Assembly (NCBI GenBank): GCA_964016885.1
Contig: OZ024740.1
Span: 338,582,001-338,646,000 of the forward strand
Source of the DNA: Eledone cirrhosa
Lineage: Eukaryota
Direction of reading: 5' to 3'
Length of the DNA stretch: 64,000 nt
The stretch's first letter is position 1, and each line of letters begins with the position of its first letter. A model generated the notes under the pieces. That model was not told the origin of the DNA and did not search any database. It worked only from the letters and a program-made list of their open reading frames with translations. The position numbers were made by a program, and so were the translations under genes. This document shows positions 944 through 55,958 of the stretch, in pieces.

Positions 944-1277
944 AAAGTTCTATTTAAATTGTTGGGATACAACAAGCAAATATTTTTATAACTGATATAA
1001 AGCACTCGACAAATATTTGGAGTAGATATATGATATTAATAAATGGAAACTATATTTATAAAACCATATTTATTTCATTATATATATTTCAAGGATACCA
1101 AGTTAAATTATGGTATGCCTTCAAAATACAATATATAACAAGTAAGTATGTTTTGAAACAGTGAGCGAGTTTGAAATTAGAAAATATATAGCTTTCACCG
1201 TATTTTTTTTTAACTAAAGGAATTTTAGCTTGATAACGGGGTTTAGAACCCTCAGATAAATGGAAAAATATGAGTAT

Positions 1278-1348
1278 TGACGTACATGGGAGTCGAACCC
1301 ACATCGGTGGTTATCGCGACCACTGTGCTACCATTACACCAACACATC
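1278..1348 (-). tRNA. tRNA-like cloverleaf, non-canonical anticodon loop (pseudo-tRNA or Pol III cassette), copy 1
   Basis: Reverse complement of 1524-1594; anticodon stem GTGGT/ACCAC fully paired; A box and B box intact; followed by T5. Confidence 0.65.
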
Positions 1349-1523
1349 ACCCGTCTCTTTCCATTCAAATTAGAAACAAGCTAAAATTCCTTTAGTTAAA
1401 AAAAAATACGGTGAAAGCTATATATTTTCTAATTTCAAACTCGCTCACTGTTTCAAAACATACTTACTTGCCATTTAAACTCGCTAAGAATGTAGTTTCT
1501 AATTTGAATGGAAAGAGACGAGT

Positions 1524-1594
1524 GATGTGTTGGTGTAATGGTAGCACAGTGGTCGCGATAACCATAGATGTGGGTTCGACTCCCATGTACGTCA
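1524..1594 (+). tRNA. tRNA-like cloverleaf, non-canonical anticodon loop CGCGATA, copy 2
   Basis: GATGTGT TG GTGT AATGGTA GCAC A GTGGT CGCGATA ACCAT AGAT GTGGG TTCGACT CCCAT GTACGTC A; TTTTT at 1604-1608; lacks U33. Confidence 0.65.
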
Positions 1595-1794
1595 ATACTC
1601 ACCTTTTTCCATTTATCTGAGGGTTCTAAACCCCGTTATCAAGCTAAAATATATAACAGTTTTATAAATAGACATTGACGTACCCTTTTAAAAAGTGACC
1701 GTTGCTTTTGGAGACCATCGGGATGGCCTCCAAAAGCAACGGTCACTTTTTAAAAGGGTACGTCAATGTCTATTTATAAAATTGTTATATATTG

Positions 1795-1859
1795 TATTTT
1801 GTCTGATGAAGGCATACCATAATTTAACTTGGTATCCTTGAAATATATATAATGAAATA
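1795..1859 (+). ncRNA. Minimal type I hammerhead ribozyme with palindromic helix III
   Basis: TATTTTGT-CTGATGA-[AGG..ATACCA/TGGTAT..CCT]-GAAA-TATATA-TA-ATGAAATA; stem I 8 bp including G-U pairs. Confidence 0.8.
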
Positions 1860-1898
1860 AATATGGTTTTATAAATATAGTTTCCATTTATTAATATC

Positions 1899-1934
<36 letters not shown>

Positions 1935-1939
<5 letters not shown>

Positions 1940-2040
1940 TAAATCTGTTATTTTAATAAATATTTGCTCTAGGGTTCTTATATATTTGATATATATTTAT
2001 CCTTATCGAGCCCTCTTTGGGTTGTAGTCTTCACATTTAT
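1935..2040 (+). mobile_element. 3' tail fragment of the Penelope-like family seen at 30.7-32.6 kb
   Basis: Aligns by eye to 32476-32585 (aatctgttat..aataaatatttgc..tatatatttatcct.atcgagcc). Confidence 0.7.
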
Positions 2041-2056
2041 TATTATGACTATTATT

Positions 2057-2660
2057 GCTCTTTGAGTCTCAGTCATTGATATTATTTTACTGGAAAGTTT
2101 GTTGAAATGCATATCAAGCCACTACCTGCAGCCTCAGGCATTCAGACGTATCGGAGGGTTCTTGCTGTTCCCAGCAAGCATGCCTTTTGAAATGTTCCAA
2201 AAAGCGGGGCTGGACTAATCTTCTTTAACCATCCTTGGAAATTCTTGGAGATAGTACCTAGTGCGCCTATGACAATCGGGACGACCTTGATTTCATGGCA
2301 GTTCCAAATCCTTTTTAATTCCCACTTTAAATTCTGGTATCGGTTAATTTTCTCCCTCTCCTTTTCTTGCACTCTCGTTTCAAATGGGCAGGCTACATCT
2401 ACAATTAGGCACGATCTTTTTTTCCTTGTCCAAAAGCCCTATTGTGTTCTAATTTCTTGTCCGTCTGTATCCTAAAATCCCGTAGCACCTTCATCTGATC
2501 GTTTTCTATCACCGACTCTGGCTTATGCTCATACAACTTCTCAGAGTGTGGTAAATTGTTTAGTTTGCATAGATGCCAGTGGATCACTCTGCCTATCACA
2601 TCATGTCTCCAGCCTTTATAGGCTAGGTGTTTACACTCGGATACACTGTGAGCCACAATC
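2057..2660 (-). mobile_element. R4/Dong-type non-LTR retrotransposon family A, 3' fragment
   Basis: RLE C-terminus (RHD, EKINRYQ, VVPIVIGALG); 3' end abuts ATT repeats. Confidence 0.9.
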
Positions 2661-3505
2661 GAAGAAGATCAGCTGTTTGCTCTCTTCCGGAGAACTTTCA
2701 GCCCAGGGCCTACGGATAACTTCCAAAAATCCCTGGCTTGTCAGTGCTACCGGGGAGCGCTGCCGGTTCGAGATAAGCTCTACAGGCACAGAGGTGCCGT
2801 CAGCCGAGCCTGTCCGAGATGCGCGCAGAGCAACGAAACCGTCGTGAACCCACTCGTTCAGTGCCCGAGCATTGCTGACTTGTGGAGCTATGTTGAACAG
2901 TTTCTGTCGCGTGTAGGACTGATTCGGTTATCGACTGAGTCCATTGTGCAGATGGTCTCGCCGTCTTCCTTCGAGGAGGAAGGGCAGGCGGTTTTCATCT
3001 GCCTGGTGGCCATGGCGAAAGAGATTGTGTGTTGGACAAGGTTGAAAGGGTTAAAGACAGACACTTTCCTCTTCGGCGAATCCCTAATTAACTTTTTTCA
3101 AGTTTCACTTGAAGAGGAAAATCAGGGTGGAGAGGCAAGTGCTGCCTTCTAGCAAGTTTGTTGAAAGGTGGGTGAATGTAGCGAGAATGGTCCGAGTGAA
3201 CATACGTCTGTAGTTTGAGAAATGGAAAAATTGAGAGGGGGCGCTTGCCCTGGTGGTCAGGGTGGCCGTGGTCTTTTGTGTGGTTTTCGCCACGAGTAAC
3301 CCTCGGAGGCTTCCCCCTATTGGGGAATTTTTCATTATTTCAATTTTCATTTTTATTGTTTATATATGTTTCTATGTCTTTTTTTCTTTTCTTATATAAA
3401 TAACAAAAATATTTACACCCACAAAACCCACATCGTACCGTCCTGTACCGTCCAGTGCCGTCTGTAATGTTTTTCTTGATGTCAGCCCTTGTGGTCAATA
3501 AAGAA
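2659..3505 (+). mobile_element. Tx1/L1-type LINE, 5'-truncated 3' fragment
   Basis: Homologous to 15312-16129 (C-terminal zinc-finger region, 3' UTR); ends CCCTTGTGGTCAATAAAGAAA then (ATT)n. Confidence 0.88.
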
Positions 3506-3530
3506 ATTATTATTATTATTATTATTATTA

Positions 3531-4810
3531 TATTTATCTTGCTTTATGTTCATACGAGTTATCACCAAGTCACAACCAGTGACCTCAAGAGACAACAAGG
3601 TCCGCCATGTTCAAGAAATAACATACATGCACACACATGCATCTTTAGGTGTTTAGACTTGTGATGTACTTATATTGACAGAATCTTCCTTAGTATATGG
3701 GCAGTTCCCATTAGTACTATCTTATGTATTTCTCCTATACGCGGGTTTCCTGGGATTTGCGATAATTAATCATTAGACCCTTAGGTATCATTCCTAGAGC
3801 TCCTACAACCACTGGTATTGTTATAGTTCTCAATTACCACATTTTTCCAATTTCTATCTCCAGGTCCTTATACTTGCTCAATTTTTCAAATGTTTTTATA
3901 GATACATTCTTGTCTATTGGAACGGACATATCAATTAGCAGGCATACCCTCTTTTTAAAGTCCTTCAGTATTATATCAGGTCTATTTGCATCTATTTTTC
4001 GGTCTGTTAGGATGATAAAGTTCCACAAGATTGAGATGTGATCTTTTTCAAGTATGGGAGGTGGTTGATGCTCCCACCAATTCTTTTGATGGGGCAGGTC
4101 AAAATGCTTACACATTATCCAATGTATGTATTGTGCAGCTCTGTCATGCCTGTTTAGGTATTCGGTTGGAGCTATAGGACTGCACATTGAAATTATATGA
4201 TCAATGGTCTCTGGTTGTTTTTTACACACACGGCATAATGGGCTGCATCCATTTTTTATTATGTTGCTTGGTAATTTTTTGTTGGCAGACACTGATCTTG
4301 TGCTGATATAATCAGTCCTTCAGTCTCCGATTTCAGTCCAGAGGATGCCAGCCACTGATGGGTTAAAGTTTTGTCAACAACAGGATTGTTAATTCTTTCT
4401 GGGTATTTTTCATACAGAGGCTTTTCTTGCCATTTCTTAGCCAGTTTCTGTAGCAGTTCTTTCTTTGCAGTTACTTTTATCTGCTTTGCTTTTTCTGTGT
4501 TTTCCATTTCAGCAGTAAATGGGACTTCTGAAATGTGTAGTCCATTACTGTATCTTTGTGCATCTTTTGTAATGGAGTATGATCTTTTGATGCTTTCGTG
4601 TTTCAAAACGAGTTTGATCATCCAATCATGTGATACCCTTAGATATGTAGATAATCCAATTATTGCAGTTTTCAACGCAATATCTAACTGGATTAACCCA
4701 CGTCCTCCTTCTTTCCTAGGGAGATATATTCTATCTGTATCTGCCTTAGGGTGATGCATTCTGTGCATGGATAAGAATTTTCTAATTTTTGTATCGAGCC
4801 TACGGATCAC
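3531..4810 (-). mobile_element. R4/Dong-type family B, 3' fragment
   Basis: CRVC..HIISMC, RHD and NRPD motifs; near copy of 19658-20930; (ATT)n on both sides. Confidence 0.9.
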
Positions 4811-4875
<65 letters not shown>

Positions 4876-7800
4876 GTTCTTTGAGTGTCAGTCATTGATA
4901 TTAGTTAAGTGGAAAGTTTGTTGAAATGAATATCAAGCTACTACCTGCAGCCTCAGATATTCAGGACGTATCGAAGGGTTCTTGCTGTCCCCAGCATGCA
5001 TGCCTTTAGAAGCGTTCCAAAAAGCGTGGCGGAGCCAATTTTCTTTAACCATCCCTGGAAACTTTTTTGAGATAGTACCTAGTGCGCCTATGACAATCGG
5101 GACCACTTTGACTTCATGGCAGTTCGAAATCCTTTTTACCTCCCACTTTAAGTCCTGGTATCGGTTAATTTTCTCCCTCTCCTTCTCTTGCACTCTCGTG
5201 TCGAATGGGCAGGCCACATCTACAATCAGGCACGATCTTTTTTCCTTGTCCAAAACCACCAGCTCAGGTCTATTGTGTTCCAGTTTCTTGTCCGTCTGTA
5301 TCCTAAAATTCCACAGCACCTTCACCTGATCGTTTTCTATCACCGACTCTGGCTCATGCTCATACCACTTCTCAGAATGTGGTAAATTGTTTACTTTGCA
5401 TAGGTGCCAGTGGATCACCCTGCCCATCACATCATGTCTCCAGCCTTTATAGTGAGCCTGGGCTACACGCGGATACAATTGGTCTATTGTTCTCTCCTTC
5501 AGTACAATTCTGAACATTGTCTCCCTACTGTCGGTCACGTATTTGTGCAGGTTGTTTTTCTCCATCTGAACACATTCCTCTATGCTGATAAGACCTCTTC
5601 CACCTTCAGATCTCTTTAAGTAGAGTCTATCGACATCACTCCTCTTGTGGAACATGTAGATAGTCAATAGCTTCCTAGTCTTCCTATCCATTTGTTTTTG
5701 TTCAGCAACATTACATTTCAGAATTCCCGCACTGTACCTAATAATAGACACAGCTCCGGAATTCACTGCGCTTATGACATTCCTACTATTTAGACGTGAT
5801 TTTAATACGCTCCTTACTCTCCTAATGTACTCAGATCTTATCAATTCCTTCATTTTTTTGTTCTTGATGTCATCTGCCTCCAGAACACCTAAATATTTGT
5901 ATCCTTCTTCAGTGTCAATTTCCAATCTCACCTGTTGGTACCTGGATTCCGTTGCTTCTGCTCAATTTACCCCTCTTCATCACAAGGACTCCACACTTAC
6001 TAATACCAAATTGCATACATATATCATTACTGAAAATACGGACAGTGTCAACAAGCACATCCAATTCCTTCTCACTCTTCCCGAAGAGCTTCAGATCGTC
6101 CATGAAGAGGAGGTGATTGATGGTAAGCTCTCCCTTTCCCAACTTGTATCCTGCTCTCACTTTTCGCAGTATAATGGTCAGGGGTATCAGGGCAAGGACA
6201 AACAACAGAGGGGACAGACTATCTCCCTGGAAGATACTTCTCTTGATCTTCACGCCTCCCAAGGATTCTCCAGCTGATGTTAACTCTGTTTTCCAGGACT
6301 TCATACTTTTGCTCAACAAATGTCTGATGTTATCTGCCACCTTGAAGATCTCTAGGCTTTTGGTGATCCAAGAATGAGGTACCATGTCGAATGCCTTTTT
6401 GTAGTCTATCCATCCCATGGGAAGACTAGTGCGTCTCCTCTTGCAATTCCTCATTACCATCTTATCAATAAGTAACTGGCTCTTTGTACCACGGGACTTC
6501 TTTCGGCATCCTTTCTGTTCGTCCGGTAACAAGTTGTTTATGTGGAGGTGATGGTAGATTTCCTCAGACACAATGCTTGTTAACAGTTTCCACATTACGG
6601 ACAGACATGTGATAGGTCTATAGTTGGTAACGTCATTACCCTTGATTCGGTCTTTCATTACCAGAACTGTGGTACCTTTTGTCAACCACTCTGGCACCTC
6701 ACCTGACATCAAGCAGTCATTGAACATGGTTGTCAGTTTCGGGTGGAGGGATGTTATATTTTTAATCCAATACCCTTGCACATCATCTGGGCCTGGTGAT
6801 TTCCAGTTGGTTAGTTTTTTGGCCTGCCCCTTAAGAGTTTCAACTGTGATACACAAATCAGGTTGTTGGTGTGCCTGTTCACTAATCTCCTTTTGTACTG
6901 TCTCAATCCACACTGCCTAATCATTATGTTTAACATCCTACTCCCATATTCCTCTCCAGAATGTCTTAGTTTGTTCCGCCTCAGGGATCAAGTCGTTGCT
7001 CTTTCTTTCCCTTCAAGCTGTCCAAACAACATCTTCTGGTTGTTGTCAAACATGCGGTTCTGTCTGTACTGACTGGCTCTGCTCTCGTATCGCCTAATCT
7101 TTGCACTCTTTGCTACAATGCGTTGCTTCAGTTCCTCTATGATAATATTTAGCTTTTTCTTCCTAGTTTTGTACTTTATTTCCAGTCTATCTTTAGTGTC
7201 TATGTTTTTTAGTGTTCCATTCAGTAGGGACTCAAGCTTTCCAATGTCATTTCTCATTTCCCTGATTTGACCATTCAGTCGTTTCTTCCACCAAGGTTCT
7301 GATCTTTCTTGTTTGTTGTTTCCTCTCGCTTTTATGCCAAGTAATTTCCTCACCGCATTTGCTGTTGCTTTGAGGATATTGTTGCACTGGTGAAGGCTCC
7401 TCGCCTGAAGGTATGGGATGACTTTGTTTACCTTAGCTGTTGTTTCTTTTAACTTTTTCCTGTCTAGAAATCTTATGTTCATAGGTTTCCCACTATCATT
7501 TTTCATTTCATCTACCACTAAGTTTAGGATATCAACCAAATCTTGTCCTAGCCCGTCAGCATTCATTTCCTCAATGGCCATATCTTTGTTCCAGGTATTA
7601 TTTATTTCAGCATTCAGATCATTGTCTGCTTCGGATGTTTCCTCTGTTCTCTCAACCTCTTCGCCTTAATTTCCCACTGGCTCGTTTGCCTGGCATACTC
7701 CACTCTCCATTTCCAACCTAGTCTCTCTGCTCAGTTCCTCCGGTTCCAGCTCGCTTATTCATCCATTAATTCTTATTACCCGAACCTGCCCGTCCAATTT

Positions 7801-8200
7801 TTGTTCATCTAATTTAAATAGACCAATCTCGTTCCAGATGTTATGCATCCGTTTCCTATAGCCTTTTCCCTTGGGGTTACTCTTCAGGTAACATTACATA
7901 ACAGTTCTATTCAATTCTTTCGTCCAGTTGGTTCTGGTCCCTTTCCTTCTTCCTCCTCCCACACCAGCAGTATTTGGATGACAGCCAGGTCCCTGCTGCT
8001 GGGCCAGGGAGCACAAGCTGGGTGAGAGTCTGTCACATGACATTCCAGTCTCCACTTCACCGTTATTCGAACTGTTTAGGTTCGACATTTAAACACTCAT
8101 ATCGAGGATTAGTGAATGTATGGTTACATAACTACCGGTGATTTCATCACCACCAGTGATTTCATCACCCCCGGTGATTTTAGCGTGGCATTATCACGCT
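4876..8200 (-). mobile_element. R4/Dong-type family A, near full-length, frameshifted pseudo-ORF (start about 8088)
   Basis: N-terminal W..M.CY..S.P..GYRKRM region, RT (QGDSLSPLLF, FMDDLKLF), RLE; internal deletion near 5470; 5' boundary approximate. Confidence 0.9.
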
Positions 8201-8483
8201 GTAGACGAACATAAATAAATAAACAAATAAATAGATAAAAACTTAAAAAAACAAAAATAAACATAAGTTTCATTGTAATGTTTGAATGACTGACTTTTTC
8301 GTTTTTCGTTTTACAAGGCCAGTAATATCGGTTACTAGTGTTGTTGTTGCTGCTGCTGCTAAGGGAAGTAGGGGGTGTTGTGTTCAAAACTTTTGAAATG
8401 TGTGTTTGTTGTTGCGTTTGCTTCTGTCTGTGTTCTGTTCTATAATTTTTCGACTTGTTGCTTATCATTATTTTTGTTTTTTT

Positions 8484-8567
8484 TCCTTTCATCCCTACGG
8501 GGCCGACACAACAAAGCACCTGCAACACACCGGGACAATTGCTGGCCCCGTGCCAAAAGCAGAAACA
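8484..8567 (+). mobile_element. Meta-core SINE 3' fragment, T>C hypermutated
   Basis: Aligns to 55397-55479 with 12 T>C changes among about 16 differences. Confidence 0.8.
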
Positions 8568-8594
8568 ATTATTATTATTATATTATAGTTTAGA

Positions 8595-8786
8595 CAAAGG
8601 GCGTCAATTGGCAGTATCGGTAGAGGGTTGGACGCCATGCTTTGACACATAGAGTTACGGCCTTTGCCATTCTGAGTTCAAATCCCGCCGAGGTTAACTT
8701 TGTCTTTCATCCTAACGGGCGTCGATAAAATAAAGTACCAGTAATACACTGATATAATTGCTAGCCTTGTGCCTATTGTAGAAACA
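8595..8786 (+). mobile_element. tRNA-derived SINE (Meta/MESC-type core), full length
   Basis: A box TGGCAGTATCGG, B box GAGTTCAAATCC, core CTTTCATCCT..GTCGATAAAATAAAGTACCAG; 18-bp TSD ATTATATTATAGTTTAGA (8577-8594/8787-8804). Confidence 0.9.
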
Positions 8787-8863
8787 ATTATATTATAGTT
8801 TAGATTTGACATCGTTTAAACTAAATATTTTGAAAGAGTTTAGAGATACAACATCATTATTTT

Positions 8864-9046
8864 CGGTGGATTGGCAGTATCGGTAGAGGGTCGGACGCCA
8901 TGCTTTCCAGCATAGTTACGTCCCTTTACGATCTGAGTTCAAATCCCGCCGAGGTTGACTTTGCCTTTCATCCTTACAGGGTCGATAAAATAAAGTACCA
9001 GTAATACACTAGGTAATTGCTGGCCTTGTGCCTAAAGTAGAAACAA
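8864..9046 (+). mobile_element. tRNA-derived SINE, same family
   Basis: Same head, core and tail; imperfect TSD ATTATTTT(C)GGTG. Confidence 0.9.
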
Positions 9047-9563
9047 TTATTTTGGTGTTGTTGTTGTTGTTGTTGTTAGCTGTTTGACCGAGTCACTAAC
9101 CCAGTCTATTTATATCTTTTGATATCTTCTTCGCTTCTTTTCATGTGTAGTGGCACCACCACCCCTCTCTTAAGTAGTGAGGGAATAGTGGCGGTAGCGA
9201 TGATGCAGTGGTGGCGGTGGTGAGGGACAGCAGTACTCTAGGGATGGTGCTGGTTTGTATTTGGCTAGATTTTTGTGGTAGTGGTGATGGTGATGGTGGC
9301 GGTGGCGGCGCCGGCGGTGGTGGTGCTGGTGGTGAAGTTATTTGGCTGTTATTTTCTAACCATTTTCTTTTCTGACTATAAAATTTCTGGTACAAAATTA
9401 AATATTAAATTAAATATTAAATATTGGAGCCCTATGCCGTAATGTGATGTGTTGCCACTTCCTGAGAGTTAGACTGATATCTTACGTTTCATTTGTAATA
9501 AGAATTATTCTATCACAATTGTTTTAAATATGTAAAAAAAAAAAAAAAAAATTACATTATTAT

Positions 9564-9964
9564 TGTTCTTCGAGTCTCAGACATTGATGTGATTTAACTG
9601 GAAAGTTTGTTGAAATGAATATCAAGCTGCTACCTGCAGCCTCAGATATTCAGGACGTATCGAAGGGTTCTTGCTGTCCCCAGCATGCATGCCTTTAGAA
9701 GCGTTCCAAAAAGCGGGGCTGGACTAATCTTCTTTAACCATCCCCGGAAACTCCTTGAGATAGTACCTAGTGCGCCTATGACAATCGGGACCACTTTGAC
9801 TTCATGGCAGTTCCAAATCCCTTTTACCTCCCACTTTAAGTCTTGGTATCGGTTAATTTTCTCCCTCTCCTTCTCTTGTACTCTCGTGTCGAATGGGCAG
9901 GCCACATCCACAATCAGGCACGATCTTTTTTCCTTGTCCAAAACCACCAGGTCAGGTCTATTGT

Positions 9965-9968
<4 letters not shown>
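9564..9968 (-). mobile_element. Dong family A 3' fragment (about 400 bp)
   Basis: HNRPDLVVLDK...LRYVLNI; flanked by ATT repeats. Confidence 0.9.
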
Positions 9969-9995
<27 letters not shown>

Positions 9996-9997
<2 letters not shown>

Positions 9998-10390
9998 CTT
10001 GAATCTCAGTCATTGATGTTGGTTAACTGGAAAGTCCGTTGGAATGAATATCAAGCCACTACCTGCAGCCTCAGATATTCAGGACGTATCGGAGGGTTCT
10101 TGCTGTTCCCAGCAAGCATGCCTTTTGAAGCGTTCCAAAAAGCGTGAAGGGGCCGATTTTCTTTAACCATCCCTGGAAACTTTTGGAGATAGTCCCCAGT
10201 GCACCTATGACAATCGGGATCACTTTGACTTCATGGCATTTCCAAATCCTTTTGACCTCCCACTTTAAGTCCTGGTATCGGTTAATTTTCTCCCTCTCCT
10301 CTTGCACTCTCGTGTCGAATGGGCAGGCCACATCCACAATCAGACACGATCTTTTTTCTTTGTCCACAACCACCAGCTCAGGTCTATTGT
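9996..10390 (-). mobile_element. Dong family A 3' fragment (subfamily like 17.2 kb copy)
   Basis: HNRPELVVVDK...IGPFTLFGTLQKACLLG; nearly identical to 17172-17568. Confidence 0.9.
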
Positions 10391-10392
10391 GA

Positions 10393-10442
10393 TTACAGTA
10401 ATGCACTGGGTAATTGCTGGCCTTGTGCCTAAAGTAGAAACA
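10393..10442 (+). mobile_element. SINE 3' fragment fused head-to-head to Dong fragment
   Basis: CAGTAATGCACTGGGTAATTGCTGGCCTTGTGCCTAAAGTAGAAAC then (ATT)n. Confidence 0.85.
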
Positions 10443-10713: not shown

Positions 10714-12650
10714 ATGGACGACTCAGAGTCACACCTTCCTCACAAACTAACACCTCACACCGACACCACCATTGTAAATATTACTACGTTTGCCAACACT
10801 AAAAATATAAGCAGTAGCAATATTTTAAATTTGTCTCATGCAGACATTCATTTGCCGCCATTACCAATGACTGCAGGTGTTGAAGCCGCCACCCCCACCA
10901 CCACCACAGCGACAACAGAAACAAAAGAAAGAAAGAAATTATCTCGTGACATCGAAATGGATTCACCCAAAATGAACTCTTCCACACCGAACACCACTGA
11001 CGCCACCACCACCACAACTGAAACTAAAATTAACAATAACAAAAATAACGATAACAACAACAGCAACAACAACAATGAGAATAAGAAAAGCACCCTGTCA
11101 TTTGCCAGAGTAGCAAAAAAGTGCGAAGCAATCCAGGTAACTCAGGAGGAATTAGAAGAAGCCAAAAGAATGGTAAAGAAAGATGGGTGCAGGGTCAGCC
11201 TCACCCCCCCCCCACCCCCACACACACCTAATAAAATGTAGCATCGGCGCCTATGCACCGTGTCTTATCGGACGATTAACATAAAATCGCGCCGAGTGGA
11301 ACGGGCATCCGAGTCCCAAATCCAAAACGCTTTGGGACATGTGTGGGCAAAAAAACCCACAATAGACGTGAGCAGAAATATGGAACCGTGGACGTGTTCT
11401 TTGGAACACCACAGGAGGCCAGAGAACACTCCATGGCCCCATTAAGAAGTGACGACTTCACACTCGTCCCAAGCTATTGTGGCCAGAGACTCGTGAAGAT
11501 CAGGGTGACCCACGTTCCACCGGCCACCGAAATTCCCTGGCTAATGGCTGCCGTCCTCTCCGGCATCTAGACCAACACCAAGATAATCGAAATAGCGAAA
11601 GAAAAGCAGGAGAACTGGTCCGGATCTGGGATGGAGCTCCTGATCCAAGCGGATCAAAAAAGCATTGAGGAGATCCCAGAGGTAATAGACCTCACTGACG
11701 GCAGCCACCTCACCGTAATCGTCGAGGGCAGAAGGCCTAGGTGTGTCGTTTGTGGTGAAGGAACCCACCTAAGGGTTTTCTGCCCTCAGGCTAAAAGGTT
11801 GAGGCCACCTCTCTTACCCACCCCAGTGACTCAACCATCAACACCACCAGCAGCAGAAATGGCAGCAACAACTGTAGCAGCAACAACAGAAGCAACTGTA
11901 ACAGCAACAACCCCAGCAACGGTAGCAAAACCAACACCACCACCACCCAACGCGCCAGAACTAGCACCAGCGCCTACACCATCCACCACGCCACAACCAA
12001 AACCAACGCCTGTGGAGTATTTTCCACTCCCCGACCTATCGCAATTGGAGACAGATTGTGACGACGAGGAGTGGGAAACGGTGTCAGGAAAAAAGAAAAA
12101 AGAAAAAGAAACCAAAATAGAAAAAAATTCTCATCCTTCCCCCTCCAAAAACAAAATACAGAGGGAAACAAATAAACTATCAAACAAAAAAGTTAGGACA
12201 GCTATGCCACCATCCACGCCAGATTCACCAACCCCATCTCCACAAACACCAACACCATCACCATCATTAACCCCAACACCACCTTCACCAACACCACAAA
12301 AGTCACCAAAAAGCGAAACAGAAACAAACCCACAACAAACGCAAACAAAACAAAACCACCAAAACGATACATACTACACAGCAATAAATTTGAACAACAA
12401 CCAATTATTACACTACATCCAACACAAAAAGACTACACAACAACCCAAAAGTTCACACCACCTCCACACATACAAATCACTCGCATCACACAGAAAACGT
12501 ATACGACACTAAAACAAAAATTCCCCAAAGACATCGGAGAATTCCGACAAGCACTCTCCAGGAGGATTTATAAGGACATCCTTCCGGAGGAGGCCAGAAG
12601 CAGTGAAGAGGATGGAGAAAACATCCTTCCTCTACGAGAAGTAAGGTAAG
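10714..12650 (+). pseudogene. Tx1 ORF1 (gag-like), frameshifted
   Basis: CCHC knuckle CVVCGEGTHLRVFC; Pro/Thr-rich linker; SFARVAK motif shared with 16371 ORF; end approximate. Confidence 0.75.
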
Positions 12651-15879: not shown

Positions 15880-16155
15880 ATTAAAGGTGGAAAACTGGGA
15901 GAGGGCACTTGCCCTGGTGGTCAGGGTCACCGTGGCCTTTTAATGGGCTTTCTCCACAAATGTCCCTCCGAGGTCTCCCCTCTATTGTGGAATTTTTCAT
16001 TGTTATTTTTTTTGTTACATCCCCTGTTTTTGTTTTTTACACGCAGAAATGCCCATTAGTACCGCCCTGTATTGTCCTGCACTGTCCTTAATGTCTACTT
16101 TATGTAAACCCTTGTGGTTAATAAAGAAATCATTATTATTATTATTATTATTATT

Positions 16156-17127
16156 GAATGCCATGGTTGACGGAGGCTCGGCTCTGTAAGGTATAGTAAT
16201 TTTTAACCGTTAAAACAATTGTAAATTGTTTAAAACTTGAACCAAATTGTTGATAAAGACACCCTCCTCCTCGTGAGAGGGGTCTTTCTGTCCGTTATTT
16301 GGCCCTTCGGGGTTAAATAACCAGTTATTGGGGTTTTGTACCCAAAATTTCATTTTAAACAAAAAACAACATGGCTACGAAAAAGAAATTTCATACGTCA
16401 CTCCCACTCATTCCGTCTTCTTCTTCCTCAATCATCACTACAGCAGAGAGAAGATTGTCTCTCTCCCTCCCTTCTTTAAATGTCTCTCTCTCCCTCCCTT
16501 CTCTTTCGCAAGTGAGGAAAGAAAAGAAAAGTCTCGTGCAAAGCGTGCAAGGTTTCTCCACGACGACGACGACAGCGACGAAACAGGTGTGCGGGAAATA
16601 CGAAAACCCAGTTCATTCGTCTGACGTCAGGAATAATAGCAGTAGCAGCCGTAATAACAACAGCAACAGTGACAATGAAAACAACAGTAGCAGCCGCAAC
16701 AGCATCACCAGCAGCATAAACAACAACAGCATTAGCAGCAGCAACACCAACAACAACCACAGCAACAGCGGCGGAGGCAGTAGTCGTAGTACCTGCAGCA
16801 ACAACAAAAGTACCAGCAGCTCTGACGACAACAACAACAGCAGAGAAAAACCAATCTCATTTGCAGGTATTGCGAAAAACTTGGAAACAATCCTCATAAC
16901 AAATGAGGAATTAGAGGAAGCGAAGAAGATGGTGACAAAGAACGGACACCGAGCAATCTGCAAGGCAGCGGAAAAATTTTTCGAAACCCAAGAGCACTGT
17001 ACGGTCACGTACCGTACAGTAAGTACAAAATCCCGTAGGGTGGAAAGAGCCACAGAGGCCCAAATACAAAAGTCCTGCACTGTCCTTAATGTCTACTTTA
17101 TGTAAACCCTTGTGGTTAATAAAGAAA
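16156..17127 (+). mobile_element. Tx1-related internally deleted or chimeric element
   Basis: 5' UTR plus ORF1 N-terminus (ISFAGIAK..EELEEAKKMV..SRRVERA) joined at 17072 to a 56-nt 3' end identical to 16074-16129. Confidence 0.8.
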
Positions 17128-17159
<32 letters not shown>

Positions 17160-17171
17160 GTTATTGTTATT

Positions 17172-19615
17172 CCTTGAATCTCAGTCATTGATGTTGGTTA
17201 ACTGGAAAGTCCGTTGGATTGAATATCAAGCCACTACCTGCAGCCTCAGATATTCAGGACGTATCGGAGGGTTCTTGCTGTTCCAAGCAAGCATGCCTTT
17301 TGAAGCGTTCCAAAAAGCGTGAAGGGGCCGATTTTCTTTAACCATCCCTGGAAACTTTTGGAGATAGTCCCCAGTGCGCCTATGACAATCGGGATCACTT
17401 TGACTTCATGGCAGTTCCAAATCCTTTTCACCTCCCACTTTAGGTCCTGGTATCGGTTAATTTTCTCCCTCTCCTTCTCTTGCACTCTCGTGTCGAACGG
17501 GCAGGCCACATCCACAATCAGGCACGATCTTTTTTCTTTGTCCACAACCACCAGGTCAGGTCTATTGTGTTCCAGTTTTTTGTCCGTCTGTATCCTAAAA
17601 TCCCACAGCACCTTCACCTGATTGTTCTCCATCACCGCCTCTGGCCTATGCTCATACCATTTCTCAGAATGTGGTAGATTGTTTACTTTGCACAGGTGCC
17701 AGTGGATCACCCTGCCCATCACATCGTGTCTCCAGCCCTTATAGTGGGTCTGGGCTAGGTGTTTACACTCGGACACAATGTGAGCCACAGTCTCCTCTCT
17801 CTCTCCACAGATCCTGCACAGTGGGCTAGCCTCCTCCTTGTAGATATGGTGCTTCAACCACTTCGTTTTGAGGGCCTGCTCCTGCGCAGCCATTAGCATT
17901 CCTTCTGTAGCCTTTTTGAGGTCTCCTCTTCTCAACCAGTTCCATGTCTGTGGATCTCTAAATTCAGTTTTCTCAAAGAAGGTACTATGAAGGGATTTTC
18001 TCTTAAGGCTGCTCTTCCTCCTTGATGTTATTTCCTCCTTGGACATCCCCTGGCCTACTGTCCCCTCCTTCAGTACAGTTCTGAGCATTGGCTCCTTACT
18101 ATAGATCACGTATTTGTATAGGTTGTTTTTCTCCATCTGAACACAGTCCTCTATGCTGATAAGACCTCTTCCACCCTCAGATCTCCTTAGGTAGAGTCTA
18201 TCGACATCACTCCTCTTGTGGAACATGTTGTAGATAGTCAATAGCTTCCTAGTCTTCCTATCCATTTCTTTTTGTTCAGCAACATTCCATCTCAGAATTC
18301 CCGCACTGTACCTAATAATAGACACAGCTCGGGAATTTACTGCGCTTATGGCATTTCTGCTGTTCAGATGTGACTTCAATACGCTCCTTACTCTCCGAAT
18401 GTATTCAGTTCTTAACAATTCCTTCATTTTTTTGTTCTTTATGCCATCAGCCTCCAGGAAGCCCAAATACTTGTATCCTTCCTCAGAGTCAATTTCCTTT
18501 ATCATCTCACCTGTTGGTATCTGGATCCCGTTACTTCTGCTCAACCTACCCCTCTTCATCACAATGACTCCACATTTACCAATACCAAACTGCATACATA
18601 TATCACTGCTGAAAATACGGACAGTGTCAACAAGCACATCCAACTCCTTCTCACTTTTCCCGAAGAGCTTCAGATCGTCCATGAAGAGGAGGTGATTGAT
18701 GGTAAGCTCTCCCCTTCCCAACTTGTATCCTGCTCTCACTTTTCGCAGCATAATGGTCAAGGGCATCAGGGCAAGGACAAACAACAGAGGGGACAGGCTA
18801 TCTCCCTGGAAGATACCTCTCTTGATCTTCACGCTTCCCAAGGATACTCCAGTTGATGTCAACTCTGCCTCCCAGGACCCCTTACTCCTGCCTAGCAACT
18901 GTCTGATGTTATCTGCCACCCTGAAGATCTCCATGCTTTTGGTGATCCAGGAATGAGGCACCATGTCAAATGCCTTTCTGTAGTCTATCCATCCCATGGC
19001 AAGATCAATGTGTCTCCTCCTGCAATTCCCCATTACCATCTTATCAATAAGCAACTGGTCCTTTGTACCACGTGACTTCTTTCGGCATCCTTTCTGTTCG
19101 TCCGGTAACAAGTTGTTTGTGTGGAGGTGATGGTAGATTTCCTCAGACACAATGCTCAACAGTTTCCACATTACGGGCAGACATGTGATAGGTCTATAGT
19201 TGGTAACATCATTACCCTTGATTCGGTCTTTCATTATCAGAACTGTGGTACCTTTTGTCAACCACTCTGGCACCTCACCCGACACCAAGCAGTCATTGAA
19301 CATGGCCGTCAGCTTCGGGTGGAGGGATGTTAAATGTTTAATCCAATACCCCTGCACACCATCTGGGCCTGGTGATTTCCAGTTGGTTAGTTTTTTGGCT
19401 TGCCCCTTAAGAGTTTCAACTGTGATACTCAAATCAGTCTGTTGTTGTGCCTGCTCACCGATCTCCCTCTGTACTGTCTCAATCCACCCTGCCTGGGCAT
19501 TGTGTCTAACATCCTGCTCCCATATTCCTCTCCAGAATGTTTTAGTTTGTTCCGCCCCAGGGATCAAGTCGTTGCCTCTTTCTTTCCCCTCAAGCTGTCC
19601 AAACAGCATCTTCTG

Positions 19616-19618
<3 letters not shown>
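17172..19618 (-). mobile_element. Dong family A, 5'-truncated, with uninterrupted RT-CCHC-RLE frame (about 790 aa)
   Basis: Open frame 19617-17246: YRPITCL, QGDSLSPLLF, FMDDLKLF, CRICGEREETVAHIVSEC, RHD, NRPD..D..EK; flanked by (ATT)n. Confidence 0.95.
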
Positions 19619-19657
<39 letters not shown>

Positions 19658-19659
<2 letters not shown>

Positions 19660-22330
19660 AGTTGCATTTATCTTGCTTTATTTTCATACGAGTTATCACC
19701 AAGTCACAACCAGTGACCTCAAGAGACAACAAGGTCCGCCATGTTCAAGAAAGAACATACATACTCACACATGCATCTTTAGTGTTTAGACTTGTGATGT
19801 ACTTACATTGACAGAATCTTCCTTAGTATATGGGCAGTTCCCATTAGTACTATCTTTTGTATTTCTCCTATACGCGGGTTTCCTGGGATTTGCGATAAGT
19901 AATCATTAGACCCCTTAGGTATCATTCCCAGAGCGCCTACAACCACTGGTATTATATTAGTTCTCAATTTCCACATTTTTCCAATTTCTATCTCCAGGTC
20001 CTTATACTTGCTCAATTTTTCAAATGTTTTTATAGATACATTCTTCTCTATTGGAACGGACATATCAATTAGCAGGCATACCCTCTTTTTAAAGTCCTTC
20101 AATATTATATCAGGTCTATTTGCATCTATTTTTCGGTCTGTTTGGATGCTAAATTTCCACAACATTGAGATGTGATCTTCTTCAAGTATGGGAGGTGGTT
20201 GATGCTCCCACCAATTCTTTTGATGGGGCAGGTCAAAATGCTTACACATTATCCAATGTATGTATTGTGCAGCTCTGTCATGCCTGTTTAGGTATTCGAT
20301 TGGAGCTATAGGACTGCACATTGAAATTATATGGTCAATGGTCTCTGGTTGTTTTTTACATACACGGCATAATGGGCTGCATCCATTTTTTATTATGTTG
20401 CTTGGTAATTTTTTGTTGGCAGACAATTATCTTGTGGTGATATAATCACTCCTTCAGTCTCCGATTTCAGTCCAGATGATGCCAACCACTGATGGGTTAA
20501 AGTTTTGTCAACATCAGGATTGTTAGCTCGTTCTGGGTATTTTCCATACAGAGGCTTTTCTTGCCATTTCTTAGCCAGTTTCTGTTACAGTTCTTTCTTT
20601 GCAGTTACTTTTACCTGCTTTGCTTTTTCTGTGTTTTCCATTTCAGCAGTAAATGGGACTTCTGAAATGTGTAGTCCATTACTGTATCTTTGTGCATCTT
20701 TTGTAATGGATGCTTTCGTGTTTCAAAACGAGTTTGATCATCCAATCATGTGATTCCCTTAGATATGTAGAAAATCCAATTGTTGCAGTTTTCAACGCAA
20801 TATCTAACTGGATTAACCCACGTCCTCCTTCTTTCCTAGGGAGATATATTCTATCTATATCTGCCTTAGGGTGATGCATTCTGTGCATGGTTAAGCATTT
20901 TCGAATTTTTGTATCGAGCCTACGGATCTCTGTGCTTGACCAGTTGATGACATTGTAACTGTAGGTTACTACTGGTATGGCAAGCGTGTTTATGGCATCG
21001 ATCTTATTCCTTGCATTCAATTCCGTTCTTAAGATTGCTCTTACTCTGCGGTAACATTCCTTCCTTATCCTTTCCCTCATTGTCGAGTGCTTGGTTCCGT
21101 CTCCTTCACAAACACCTAGATATTTGTAAGTTTTTTCTTGATCAAGTTCTCTTATCACGTTCCTCCGATCAAGATTAATGTCTGAACTCTTCAGCAGCTT
21201 TCCTCTGGTGAACGTTGCTTTGGCGCATTTATCTAGTCCAAACTCCATTTTAATGTCATCACTGAACTGCTCCACAGTGGATAATAGCCCTTGCCATTGT
21301 TCATCATTTTTTGCAAATAGTTTCAGGTCATCCATGTAGAACAAGTGATTAATGGTTTTGTCATAGACTTTATATCTATGTTTTGTTTAATTGAGCATTT
21401 TACTTAATGGTATAAGTGCGATGCAGAATAAAAGCGGTGATAAAGAGTCACCCTGAAAAATTCCACAATTAATATTTACTTCTCCAGCTTCCAGTGATTT
21501 TGTTTCACTATTCAAAAGGAGTGTCGTTTTCCATGTCTTCATACTGAATGACAAAAACCTCCTGACAACGGGGATATTTTGAAAATCTCTAAACATTTTT
21601 CAATCCAACTGTGTGGCAAACTATCGAATGCTTTTTTATAATCTATCCAAGCAATTGATAGATTTTTGTGTCTATTATGGCAATCTTCCAGTATCTTTTT
21701 GTTAACCAAAAGCTGATCCTTACAGCCATATGAGCCTCGTTTACACCCTTTCTGCTCAATGGGAAATAGGTAATTTGTTATCAGGTGGTCATATGTATAT
21801 TCAGTTAGGACTGATGTTAAAATGTTATACATTGTGGTCAAGCAAGTTATCGGTCTGTAATTTTTGGGATTGTTTGTCTCATCATTCTTCGGAAGCAGGA
21901 ATGTAATGCCGTTAACTAGCCATGATGGTATCTTTTCTGGCTCCTTAACTATTTCATTGTAAAGTTGGGCTAACAGCTCATGAGACTGTGAAGGCATTTA
22001 TCCAAAAATTTTGTATTTTGTCTTTTCCTGAGGATTTCCATTTGCTGGTTTTTCTTAGAGCCAAGCGCAACTGTTCAACTGTTATATTTTCCCATATTTG
22101 TTCTTCAAGGTGAGCTGTATCTTTCATTTGTCTGTCCGTCCATGGGGCATGTATGTTATGAACTCTTTCTTCGGCCCAGATCTTTTCCCAGAATTCTTGC
22201 ACTTCCTCCTTGGGTGGTATTGATTTAGCAGTTATTGTTGACTTACCAATTTTTCTGTAGAAGTTTCATTGGTTGTTTTTGAACATATTATTGTCCTTAT
22301 AGAATCTAGATCGTTTTTCAAAGCCAGATA
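19658..22330 (-). mobile_element. Dong family B, 5'-truncated, frameshifted
   Basis: NYRPITCL, QGDSLSPLLF, YMDDLKLF, CRVC, NRPD; C-terminus LRKILSM. Confidence 0.92.
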
Positions 22331-24999: not shown

Positions 25000-25540
25000 G
25001 GGGGATAGTTGATAACGATGCTCTTGTCCTCAATGACGCTGAAAAGAAAGCAGCATGGAATTGCCTTTATCAGAGACTGATGAATGAGGTGAATGCATGG
25101 GAGGGGGGTCGTTGTTTCTACGTTTGGTAAAAGCCAGCAAATACCCCAATGTATTACTGGTACTTTATTTAATCGACCCCGTAAGGATGAAAGGCAAAGT
25201 TAACCTCGGCGCGATTTGAACTCAGATCGTAAAGGGACTGTAACTCTATGCTATGGCCTCCGACCCTCTACCGAGCCGATACTGCCAATCCAGCGACCCA
25301 AGTGGACCCAACAGAGGAACTAACTGTGCAAGTCAGTTGCAGCGTAGTAATTAAGGAAATGAGGACAGACAAAGCAGCTGGGCCATCGGGAATAGTTGCT
25401 GAGACACTGAAAGCATTTAAGATGGTAGGACATATCACATATCATACACTAAGTAATACAAAATTGTGTAATACCCAGTGACAAACGTAGCAGCATCACC
25501 GTCAACAAAGGAAAAGGAGGTGTTCTAAACAGAGGAAACC
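25000..25540 (+). mobile_element. RTE-type LINE fragment interrupted by a minus-strand SINE (about 25113-25295)
   Basis: EKKAAW..YQRLMNE and IKEMRTDKAAGPSGIVAE motifs; SINE core reverse complement GGATGAAAGGCAAAGTT. Confidence 0.65.
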
Positions 25541-34017: not shown

Positions 34018-34140
34018 GGAGGTGAGTTTTATTGTAGTACAATAAAGCAATACAGATATCGGATGAGAAGCACTCTACAGTTTGTAGGACTGGAGTATAA
34101 ATAATATATAAGGTCAAAAGATGGTTAAAAGAGTTCCATG

Positions 34141-34211
34141 TATTTTATTATGCGCATTTCAAAAACAAACATCATCATGCAATAACATTTGCGTTTTCGT
34201 CAGATAAAATA
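34141..34211 (-). ncRNA. Minimal type I hammerhead ribozyme
   Basis: Reverse complement copy of 35600-35670. Confidence 0.85.
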
Positions 34212-35599
34212 GGGAGACATGATATGAAGGTTAAAACACACTTGTGAATAGTGCAGTCTTAAATCAACATATGAAAAATAGTTTTAGATTGATGTGTGAT
34301 ATTGGGAAAACATTTTTTTTGAGGTGGGGGGTTGAAAAGGATGAAAAAGAGGAGGAGATGAGAGTAAAAAGTGGAGGGGGAGGAGTATAATGAGGAAGGA
34401 TGAGATAGGAGGAGAGATGGGTGATAGAGAGAGAGAGAGATAGCTTTTATAACTGAGAAAAATATATTGTTTTACATAAGGAGGTTGAAAAACCGTTGGA
34501 AGATAATATATAAATTAAAAGAATTTGAAAATTAACGAAGAGAAAAATTTAGAATAATGTTAAGCTAAGGTTTGTATATTTAAGGGTTTAATAATATGAG
34601 CGATGAAAAGAAATTGTTAATATGTATTAAGAATAATATTTAAGGGTTTAATAATATGTGCGATGGAAAGAAATTGTTGGTATGTATTATTAAAAAAATA
34701 TAAAAATATAGCAATAGTAATGTAAGTAAGGATATATTGTGAAAGAAGTAGAAGAGAGGATGAATAAGTGTAATATGTATAAGTGAGATGAGCATGAAAG
34801 GGAGAAAAAAATAATGAATTGAGGATGAATAATCTAACGTCAAAAAAATGTTTATGTTTACGAAGGATTTTTTCAAGGTGATATACAGTAAGAATATATT
34901 GTGCTGTGTAATAATTGTTTCTACGTTAGGCACAATGATAATTGAGAAGTGTCTAGGAAGAAAAGGTACAGATTTTCTTTTAATTTCTAACCCCTAATCT
35001 GTACCTTTTCTTCCTAGATACTTCTCAATTATCATTGTGCCTAACGTAGAAACAATTATTACACAGCACAATATATTCTTACTTTATATCACCTTGAAAA
35101 AATCTTTCGTAAACATAAACATTTTTTTGACGTTTCTTTCCATCGCACATATTATTAAACCCTTAAATATTATTCTTAATACATATTAACAATTTCTTTT
35201 CATCGCACATATTATTAAACCCTTCAATATACAAACCTTAACTTAAGATTATTCTAAATTTTTCTCTTCGTTAATTTTCAAATTCTTTTAATTTATATAT
35301 TATCTTCCAACGCTTTTTCAACCTCTCTATGTAAAACAATATATTTTTCTCAGTTATAAAAGCTATCTCTCTCTCTCTATCACCCATCTCTCCTCCTATC
35401 TCATCCTTCCTCATTATACTCCTCCGCCTCCACTTTTTACTCTCATCTCCTCCTCTTTTTCATCCTTTTCACCCCCCCCCCACACACACCTCAACATTTT
35501 TTTTTCCCAATATTTTCATCAATCTAAAACTATTTTTCATATGTTGATTTAAGACTGCACTATTCACAAGTGTGGTTTAACCTTCATATCATGTCTCCC

Positions 35600-35670
35600 T
35601 ATTTTATCTGACGAAAACACAAATGTTATTGCATGATGATGTTTGTTTTTGAAATGCGCATAATAAAATA
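35600..35670 (+). ncRNA. Minimal type I hammerhead ribozyme
   Basis: TATTTTAT-CTGACGA-long stem II (about 15 bp)-GAAA-TGCGCA-TA-ATAAAATA; perfect 8-bp stem I, palindromic helix III. Confidence 0.88.
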
Positions 35671-35700
35671 CATGGAACTCTTTCAACCATCTTTTGATCT

Positions 35701-35791
<91 letters not shown>

Positions 35792-42876: not shown

Positions 42877-42965
42877 CTTTGCCTTTCATCCTTACGGGGT
42901 CAATAAAATAAAGTACCAGTAATGTACTGGGTAATTGCTGGCCTTGTGCCTAAAATAGAAACAAT
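42877..42965 (+). mobile_element. SINE 3' fragment
   Basis: CTTTGCCTTTCATCCTTACGGGGTC...GAAACAATTATT. Confidence 0.85.
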
Positions 42966-43712: not shown

Positions 43713-45252
43713 ATATATATATATATCATCATCGTTTTGACGTCCGCTTTCCCTGCTAGTAAGGGATATATATGTGTGTGTGTGTGTGTGTGTATGCATG
43801 TTTATATCCCTACGTTGTTCATTTCATATTTGTTAATTTATATTTCATACTTTACTTTATGTGTATGTTTGTGTCTGTTTTATAGCTGAATGCAGATAGG
43901 TTTGTCAACGATAACATGCTTCATTTTCAAATTTTCCTTCGTATTGTATTCTACATTTACAGAGCTTCATTGTCTTGGCCACCACTTCTACTAAGGCAGG
44001 CCAACTAGGTTGAAAACTTCAGAAAGCCACATTATTGAACCTTAACAAATGTGTATGATTAACTTACTTATATAATCATTTCCTGCAATCAATCATTCAT
44101 TCGTGACTGTTTACTTTATGACTTCAAATCTGGTTGAAGTGCAGCACCATTAAGTCATTACATTAACGATGCATTTTGGTCGTACACCATGTCTGAATGC
44201 AGTTCCAGGGGCTGGTTCACATGCCTCCATGTGGTGATTACAACCTTGAAAACAAGCTCACACAGGACGTCCATCTAACTTCAATGTAAATATCTTTGCC
44301 ATGTAACAGCATTGTGGAAATGTTCAATGAGGAGATGTTTGTATCATGTTATGGCCTATCACATGATTTAGAATGAGTGAGTCCCAAATATTTAGTAGAA
44401 AATGCAGGCTTTGTATCTTTCTTTGTGTGGCCAGAGTCAAAATCTAGGTTTGTTAACTAGCCAGACTGAGTTGAAATTATTTTATTTGGCATAAATGCTA
44501 TTTTATGTATGTTGTATTTATATATAAGTGTAAGCCAAGGCTGGATCTAGACCTTGGGGAACCTGGGATACTTCAGGTTTGAATGCACAGCACCCCCCCC
44601 CCCCAATTTTACATATCAAAGTTAAACACATTTTGGTACCTCCAATATTTGTGATGGGAAGACAGAATGTATCCACAAACCAGAGTCCTGATACAAATGC
44701 TTGCAACAGAGTGAACTTTACAAAAGTCACCCAAAGACCAGATGGTGGTGTTAAACCAGACAGCAGATTATGTCTATACTCAAATATGATTTGATTTCAG
44801 AAACGTAAGATGCTAAACAACTTATACAAGGCAACTTGTCCTGCATGCCATCAATTCTGATAACCCACTCACCTGAACAGGTGTGTGCTTTATTGCCTCT
44901 TAAAGGATAAAGGGGGAAGTTAATGCTGGTAGGATTTGAACAGAGAAAATAAAGCAAGAAAAAATACCACAAGGCATTTTTTCTTGCATTCTAACTACTC
45001 TGCTGATTCAGCACCTATTCTGATTCTCTTTTTCAAGATCTTATATTTGGATAGTTTCTCCATTTTTTTCAAATATATATTGCTGCCTTTTGGAATTATT
45101 ATGGTTATTAGAAAATATTTTATGGTTTTTAGCAATGGTGACATTTTTAAGGTATTTAAGAATGATGTCTTGAGGATAGACTTTTATATCCTGATCTGTG
45201 AATTGTCATGTCTGCCTGTGGCCCATTCTTGAGTTTGTGTATTAATACCATT

Positions 45253-54715: not shown

Positions 54716-55958
54716 ATATGTGTATATATGTATATGTGTGTGTATGTATATATATTTATATATATGTGTGTGTATGTATATATGTTTATATATATATTTG
54801 TGTATATATATGTATATATGTGTATGTATGTGTATGTATGTGTGTATGTGTATATATATATATATGTATATATATATGTGTATATATATATGTATATGTA
54901 TGTGTATATATATATGTATGTGTGTATGTATTTATATGTATGTTTGTTGTGCGTTTGCCTGTATGTGTGTGTAAGTGGGGCCCGTGTATATGTGATTGTT
55001 GACACCTGGAATATAAATTAAGGGAAACTTCACAATATGGGGAAGCACCCCAACACTTGAACCTGTTTATAGAACCCTTTCTGCCTTTGTCACCCTTATT
55101 TCAGCCTCAAAGAATTAGCTTCTAAAGAATTTCCCTTTTCTTTAAACCAACGAATCCAACCATCCGGTAGACTTACAGGCTTGCGGGGTTAGCTTTGCCT
55201 TTCATCCTTACGGTGTCGATAAAATAAAGTACCAGTCACGCACTGGGTAATTGCTGGCCTTGTGCCAAAAGTAGAAACATTTATTAGTTATCGGAAGGTG
55301 GATTGGCAGTATCGGTAGAGGATCGGACGCCATGCTTTGACGCATTGAGTTACGGCCCTTGCCATTCTCAGTTCAAATCCCGCCGGGGTTAACTTTGCCT
55401 TTCATCCTTACGGGGTCGATAAAATAAAGTACCAGTAATGCACTGGGTAATTGCTGGCCTTGTGCCAAAAGTAGAAACAATTATTAGTTTAAGAGATAGG
55501 GCGGTGGATTGGCAATATCGGTAGAGGGTCGGACGCTATGCTTTGCAGCATAGTTACGTCCCTTTACAGACTGAGTTCAAATCCCGCCGAGGTTAACTTT
55601 GCCTTTCATCCTTATGGGGTCGATAAAATAACGTACCAGTAATGCACTGGGTATTTTCTGGCCTTGTGCCAAAAGCAAAAATAATTATTAGTTTAAGAGA
55701 TAAATAAGGATTGGTATTCCAATTCGAATTTGTTTACAGTATTCTTTCAGCCTTTGTTAATATTATAGCTTCAAAGAATTAGCTTTTAATGAACTCCCTC
55801 TCCTTTAAATTCATCAACCAATGACCCCCATCCATCCCAACCCCCACCTTCTACCACTAGAAAAGATATAAATACCACCACATTTACTTGGACAGTCAGC
55901 TTCCTGATGATTTCTCATGAATGAAACAGTTCTAGTCCTGTAGAAGCTTTTCTATATT

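Follow-up and report, generated by a model that had tools for sequence, protein, structure and literature searches.

Dense A>G hypermutation of reverse-transcribing elements is described for avian retroviruses, with nearly 50% of the adenines changed in Rous-associated virus (RAV) and avian leukosis virus (ALV) (PMC12925331). The locus described here is comparable in its dense A>G changes (about 70% of the sites) in a reverse-transcribing element. In contrast to these viruses, it is a SINE fragment changed on the antisense strand, found at an assembly locus among non-LTR elements and with no adjacent inverted repeat. A second comparable group are the 'DNA editing' fossils of APOBEC, for which a single copy also carries a strand-specific cluster of one mismatch type fixed at insertion (PMC4866542, PMC2873906). 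These are G>A changes by cytidine deamination of cDNA. Vertebrate LTR elements were reported to carry them commonly, and invertebrates served as the negative control (PMC4866542). That screen focused on LTRs and reported only noise in 19 invertebrates.

For cephalopods, an exceptionally high hyper-editing rate with depletion of the upstream G was reported for Octopus bimaculoides (PMC5625713). This rate bears on the present fragment if its host is a coleoid, an assignment based on the SINE. Hyper-edited clusters and the present fragment both show many A>G changes over a short, repeat-derived stretch. The former are differences between RNA and genome, whereas here the changes are in the DNA and an avoidance of 5' G is not significant (1/3 adenines after G changed). 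Octopus transcripts often embed SINE fragments, and the LINE Dong was reported in Octopus bimaculoides (PMC9115989). One neighbour of our fragment, putatively of the same clade, resembles this R4-clade element as an RT-encoding LINE flanked by TAA repeats (PMC3774820, PMC9115989); unlike the described Dong, this decayed copy gave no HDV-like ribozyme match. A precedent for an ADAR-type scar is known from retroviral proviruses. The literature covered, mostly titles and abstract openings and with few subscription journals, described no SINE or other non-LTR element that had been edited by ADAR and then become fixed in the germline.

In the window, i.e. the whole analysed stretch of 64,000 nucleotides, non-LTR elements are nested into one another at runs of (TAA)n. 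The SINE at 55297-55485, presumably of the Nin-DC/Deu-domain type, was used as BLASTN query and ten copies in the window were long enough to be aligned; the short or weak matches at 34910-34935, 35035-35060 and 44903-44947 were omitted. One truncated copy (Table 1) matched with 8481-8573 to positions 98-189 of the query (81.7% in BLASTN). Compared with the reference span 55394-55485, it carries twelve T>C changes (8495, 8503, 8507, 8512, 8517, 8523, 8526, 8531, 8536, 8548, 8549 and 8560), only four other substitutions within 8484-8567 (8484 G>T, 8509 A>C, 8521 A>T and 8527 G>A) and one additional A at 8535. On the plus strand no A>G was detected, with 26 A in the reference span. The nine other copies were each scored against a leave-one-out majority. 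T>C accounted for 6 of their 118 substitutions and for 12 of the 16 in the fragment (Fisher p=6.6e-10 by share of substitutions, p=1.6e-13 per T site). The significance holds after correction for about 120 choices of copy and substitution type. The original prediction of twelve T>C among about 16 differences is thus borne out.

The cluster is confined to the SINE body. Between the first and the last change (66 bases) 12 of 17 majority T's became C, among them eight consecutive ones at 8503-8536. Ten of the twelve C's are absent from every other copy in the window, and those at 8526 and 8560 each occur in one other copy. The A at 8527 is common to the fragment and three other copies. The T>C cluster is present in the sequence and is neither chance nor a common subfamily.

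Table 1. Coordinates of the features at and around the changed SINE fragment and of related features in the window
Positions	Strand	Feature	Evidence
4870..8200	-	Decayed Dong/R4-like LINE, candidate carrier; ORF start ~8090-8100; 3' end at (TTA)n 4811-4875; 5' limit may extend to 8484	RT profile match, motifs, depth
8363..8484	-	Left flank: low-copy repeat in organism D; LINE 5' UTR or ORF1 remnant	Depth 1,400-4,700
8485..8567	+	5'-truncated SINE (3' half), carries the cluster	BLASTN against the 55297 copy and alignment
8495..8560	-	Cluster of 12 changes at 12/17 sites, A>G when read on the minus and T>C on the plus strand	Alignment, Fisher tests
8568..8576	+	(ATT)n tail of the 8485-8567 fragment, unaltered; candidate junction	Sequence, alignment
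8597..8783	+	Full-length SINE, later insertion beside the fragment tail; 18-base target duplication 8577-8594 / 8787-8804; 0 T>C of 54 T sites	Alignment, duplication search
8865..9044	+	Full-length SINE; target duplication of 8 bases; no T>C at its 55 T sites	Alignment, duplication search
9052..9550	-	Tx1-like LINE, decayed, 5' end with ORF1 start; second candidate carrier/promoter	Short collinear matches
17170..19620	-	Second Dong/R4-like copy; A>G in excess on the sense strand, with the highest density at 18860-18940 (11/32 A); supporting, not firm	Self-BLAST, alignment, polarised changes
25112..25296	-	SINE body in inverted orientation, the only such copy of the window; 16.5 kb from the fragment	BLASTN

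Two features of the fragment were considered and not used. No target duplication was found around 8485-8567, and this was dropped as evidence because the truncated copies at 42877 and 55184 have none either; the truncation point of the 42877 copy is nearly the same as that of the fragment. A minus-strand poly(A) tail at 8466-8484 is not diagnostic, with an inverted match at 8245-8267 (21/23), and T-rich left flanks, common for this SINE, also count against it. Both full-length SINEs to the right are separate insertions, as indicated by their exact 18- and 8-base target duplications and the lack of T>C. Target duplications of this SINE in general are 8-18 bases long and begin at an ATTAT-like motif. 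Head-to-tail arrays at 55184-55702 and 8485-8783 show insertion next to the tails of earlier copies.

A self-BLAST scan of the window flagged one-type clusters outside simple repeats only in this fragment and in the second Dong-like copy (18856-18935); all other one-type windows were located in simple repeats. The A/C-rich region 11000-12500 was considered as a larger T-depleted tract and rejected, being the low-complexity ORF1 of a plus-strand Tx1-like LINE. A long inverted repeat (34096-34673 / 35133-35715; 586 bases, 94%) with a short SINE-tail match at each inner end is a potential ADAR substrate, and no cluster was flagged there. Two tRNA-Ser(CGA) calls, 1277-1349 (-) and 1523-1595 (+), lie 170 bases apart in opposite orientation.

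To the left of the fragment, the minus-strand LINE gave RVT_1 and weak zf-RVT profile matches and none for Exo_endo_phos (apurinic endonuclease). CCHC and PD..D (endonuclease-like) motifs were spotted by eye; their identity and the Dong/R4 label are our assumption. Insertion of Dong-like elements in (TAA)n was found with (TTA)n at 4811-4875, 17130-17171 and 19617-19658. Rfam over 7900-9300 gave one chance miRNA match (E 0.82) and no HDV-like ribozyme; the LINE copy is decayed. The depth of this LINE in organism D (see below) was 65,000-297,000 at 7700-8158 and about 11,000 at 8159-8209, in an alignment that skipped 8203-8365. The high-copy depth falls away at about 8200, some 280 bases short of the fragment. 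Directly upstream of the Dong-like ORF, 8134-8198 contains GC-richer short hairpins and an 18-base tandem repeat; this zone coincides with the drop of the family read depth and has no Rfam match. Within 7700-8484, only scattered T>C was seen in the rows shown of the depth alignment, as expected if just the duplex-forming part of the SINE was edited.

To the right, 9515-9527, 9352-9397 and 9124-9137 are collinear with the element at 16160-17070, each match being weak (E 0.016-0.055). The latter is a second, 5'-only Tx1-like element, capped by an exact 82-base duplicate of a Tx1-like 3' end (16074-16155 / 17072-17153). The fragment is thus flanked left and right by LINE pieces on the minus strand. 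In an RNA transcribed from one of them, the SINE would be in antisense, which is the A>G strand. The original prediction named the Dong element as possible carrier. As a minus-strand neighbour it stays a candidate, but its high-copy depth falls away about 280 bases from the fragment and the right flank belongs to a separate Tx1-like LINE, a carrier candidate of equal standing. For R2 elements, co-transcription is described, and upstream sequence can be brought into their 5' junctions (PMC3774820). The silkmoth Dong, in contrast, has a self-cleavage site at its 5' end that separates it from the RNA upstream (PMC3774820). This speaks against 5' carry-over as a routine in Dong elements, and Dong carriage is thus not the default.

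The sequence context of the changes had also been put forward in favour of ADAR. The counts were reproduced: on the minus strand the changed adenines follow U six times, C three times, A twice and G once. The support drawn from them was not, as only three adenines follow G, one of them changed (p=0.55), and the ratio of 6/7 changed adenines after U to 6/14 is not significant (p=0.16). The context is compatible with ADAR and is not evidence for it. Within the window, no inverted SINE copy was found within 2 kb of the fragment and the nearest is 16.5 kb away; a partner may have been present in trans or at a donor locus. The duplex energies of -123.6 and -150.7 kcal/mol show only that the changed strand would still pair.

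For the question of a subfamily, contigs of one sample (X4-X6) and RAD reads (X7) of organism D were aligned to 7700-9200 at 88% likeness. These are four of nine runs listed for 7000-9200, none of them recorded as RNA; X1-X3 (shares 0.08-0.15), X8 and X9 do not enter the evidence. This organism may be a relative of the source of the window; the listed long pieces differ from the window by 6-18 letters. At 8465-8515 the depth was 570-699 for the contigs and 27 for the reads, compared with 10.8-12.3 million and 85,600 over the SINE core. At 8548 and 8549, T made up 87-91% of the contig depth and 181 and 186 of 214 reads; this majority indicates that T is the family state. Among the matches listed, whose rows leave out 8495-8536, no piece was about 100% identical to the locus and none had the C string. 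In X7, the read depth left of the 8484 junction (8414-8464) was nearly equal to that right of it (8465-8515), about 27 in each case, and these reads could be from the donor, from an orthologue or from two unrelated read sets. A degenerate pattern of the SINE core gave no match in metagenome, genome and viral contigs. The original prediction had raised the point that the changes might define a subfamily. No high-copy subfamily was found, with ten of the twelve C's in no other copy of the window and a depth over the cluster relative to the core of <=6e-5 (contigs) and <=3e-4 (reads) in organism D. A large C-bearing subfamily is excluded in this organism, and a low-copy one is compatible with the depth. 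A low-copy family from one edited ancestor would still require an editing event.

The second Dong-like copy (17170-19620) was examined for a similar signal. Compared with the 4870-7100 copy, its sense strand shows 74 A/G, 27 G/A, 31 T/C and 13 C/T differences, a modest excess of A/G over T/C (p=0.017). Amino-acid changes were polarised with the best 120 of 1,993 homologues, nearly all of which carry no element name. At 40% conservation, 11 of the 17 bases derived in this copy were A>G and none T>C (p=0.004); A>G made up 13/19 at 30% and 7/11 at 50% conservation. The contrast with the other Dong-like copy, based on the same best 120 of 1,993, was weak (p=0.04-0.13). Over all sites, adenines after U or A were changed more frequently (54/351) than adenines after G (15/213; p=0.003). 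In contrast, at codon positions 1 and 2 the 5' G was not avoided (13/165 vs 19/230; p=1.0) and A/G did not exceed T/C per site (p=0.16); the A/G differences were three times denser at third positions. The A>G excess of this copy is suggestive, and evolution of the lineage could account for it as well. When the private changes of six Dong-like copies were compared over the 3' 400 bases, A>G was not in clear excess, and 4/13 changes common to the 9997 and 17170 copies were A>G. A pair from a second LINE family (3532-4810 and 19660-20931) showed no biased spectrum. The Dong-like 3' fragments 9556-9966 and 9997-10395 (-) belong to different subfamilies, stand in tandem and are 5'-truncated at nearly the same base. 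A 53-base 3' piece of the SINE follows directly after the latter.

The cluster is probably the trace of an ADAR hyper-edited RNA that was written back by LINE reverse transcription. According to this model, the fragment would first have inserted in the ordinary way, either in opposite orientation to a LINE or immediately upstream of a LINE. A minus-strand transcript, of the LINE or a read-through RNA, would then have run through it, and the antisense stretch may have paired with sense SINE RNA or with an inverted copy. ADAR would have converted about 70% of the adenines of this stretch to inosine. During target-primed reverse transcription inosine would be read as G, and the changes would enter germline DNA. 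The neighbouring SINEs would have come later or been outside the copied piece. The original prediction of a reverse-transcribed, edited antisense RNA retains the dense, strand-pure cluster and the failure of the subfamily explanation in its favour; it loses the neighbour argument, and Dong is one candidate carrier only. Against a two-step origin it can be said that the fragment resembles an ordinary truncated sense insertion and that two mobilisation steps are required.

The main alternative, a one-step origin during the SINE's own insertion from sense RNA, needs neither a carrier nor a duplex partner. It fits the shape of the fragment, which is built like a normal truncated sense insertion, ends in an (ATT)n tail and has changes within the body only. 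In this case, ADAR would have acted on DNA and deaminated the cDNA adenines within the RNA:cDNA hybrid, or G would have been placed opposite U along the tract by the reverse transcriptase. We consider this origin fairly unlikely. Nothing similar was found in the nine other copies, and a change of 70% of the sites far exceeds known polymerase error rates. ADARs edit the DNA of DNA:RNA hybrids in vitro, but this activity was located at dA-C mismatches and in base-flipping mutants, and editing of retroviral cDNA is called unknown in the same source (PMC12925331). That ADAR deaminated the new cDNA strand of the SINE RNA:DNA hybrid in target-primed reverse transcription, i.e. in vivo DNA editing of a retroelement, appears quite improbable. 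It would leave sense-strand T>C clusters in free-standing SINEs. If true, ADAR editing of cDNA would be an invertebrate counterpart of the restriction by APOBEC.

The C's could also be an artefact, introduced either by polishing of the assembly with edited RNA reads or by a systematic error in base calling. The C string has no independent read among the matches listed for organism D, with the rows for 8495-8536 left out, and clusters of sequencing errors of one mismatch type have entered reference genomes (PMC2873906). The known error, in contrast, is G-to-A in capillary traces at an AGA-type motif (PMC2873906). Furthermore, the clean flanks and neighbouring SINEs, the exact 18- and 8-base duplications and the lack of any N in the window speak against an artefact, which we regard as unlikely.

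A DNA-level mutation tract after insertion is very improbable. It would be ascribed to an error-prone repair polymerase of the Pol eta/iota type, with W-A as the context of Pol eta, or to TpA-directed hypermutation. The change of six of the seven adenines after U/T is in agreement with such a tract, but half of the changes are outside TpA, no plus-strand A>G is present, both ends of the tract lie within the SINE and its density is above known polymerase error rates. Least probable of all is that the fragment belongs to an ordinary subfamily of the SINE or is an old, diverged copy with differences that happen to be T>C. The two C's each common to one other copy and the non-T share at 8548 and 8549 (9-13% of the contig depth, 33 and 28 of 214 reads) are in favour of this. 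They are opposed by the ten C's without counterpart, by the low depth at 8465-8515 and by the small number of other substitutions, which excludes a general divergence of the copy.

No function is evident for the fragment itself, and the weight of a single locus is modest. In work on cephalopod editing, edits are regarded as not directly inherited, and the text of this source does not contain 'reverse transcri' or 'retro' (PMC7703385). If the proposed write-back of edited RNA is true, there is a direct route from A-to-I editing into inherited DNA, by which temporary RNA edits become heritable. The strand is the informative feature here, as the passenger model can be told apart from editing of a DNA strand when a SINE is edited in antisense. 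Fossils like this would show ADAR acting on germline retroelement RNA. They would record past editing levels and sequence preference and would give a rate for the write-back of RNA to DNA.
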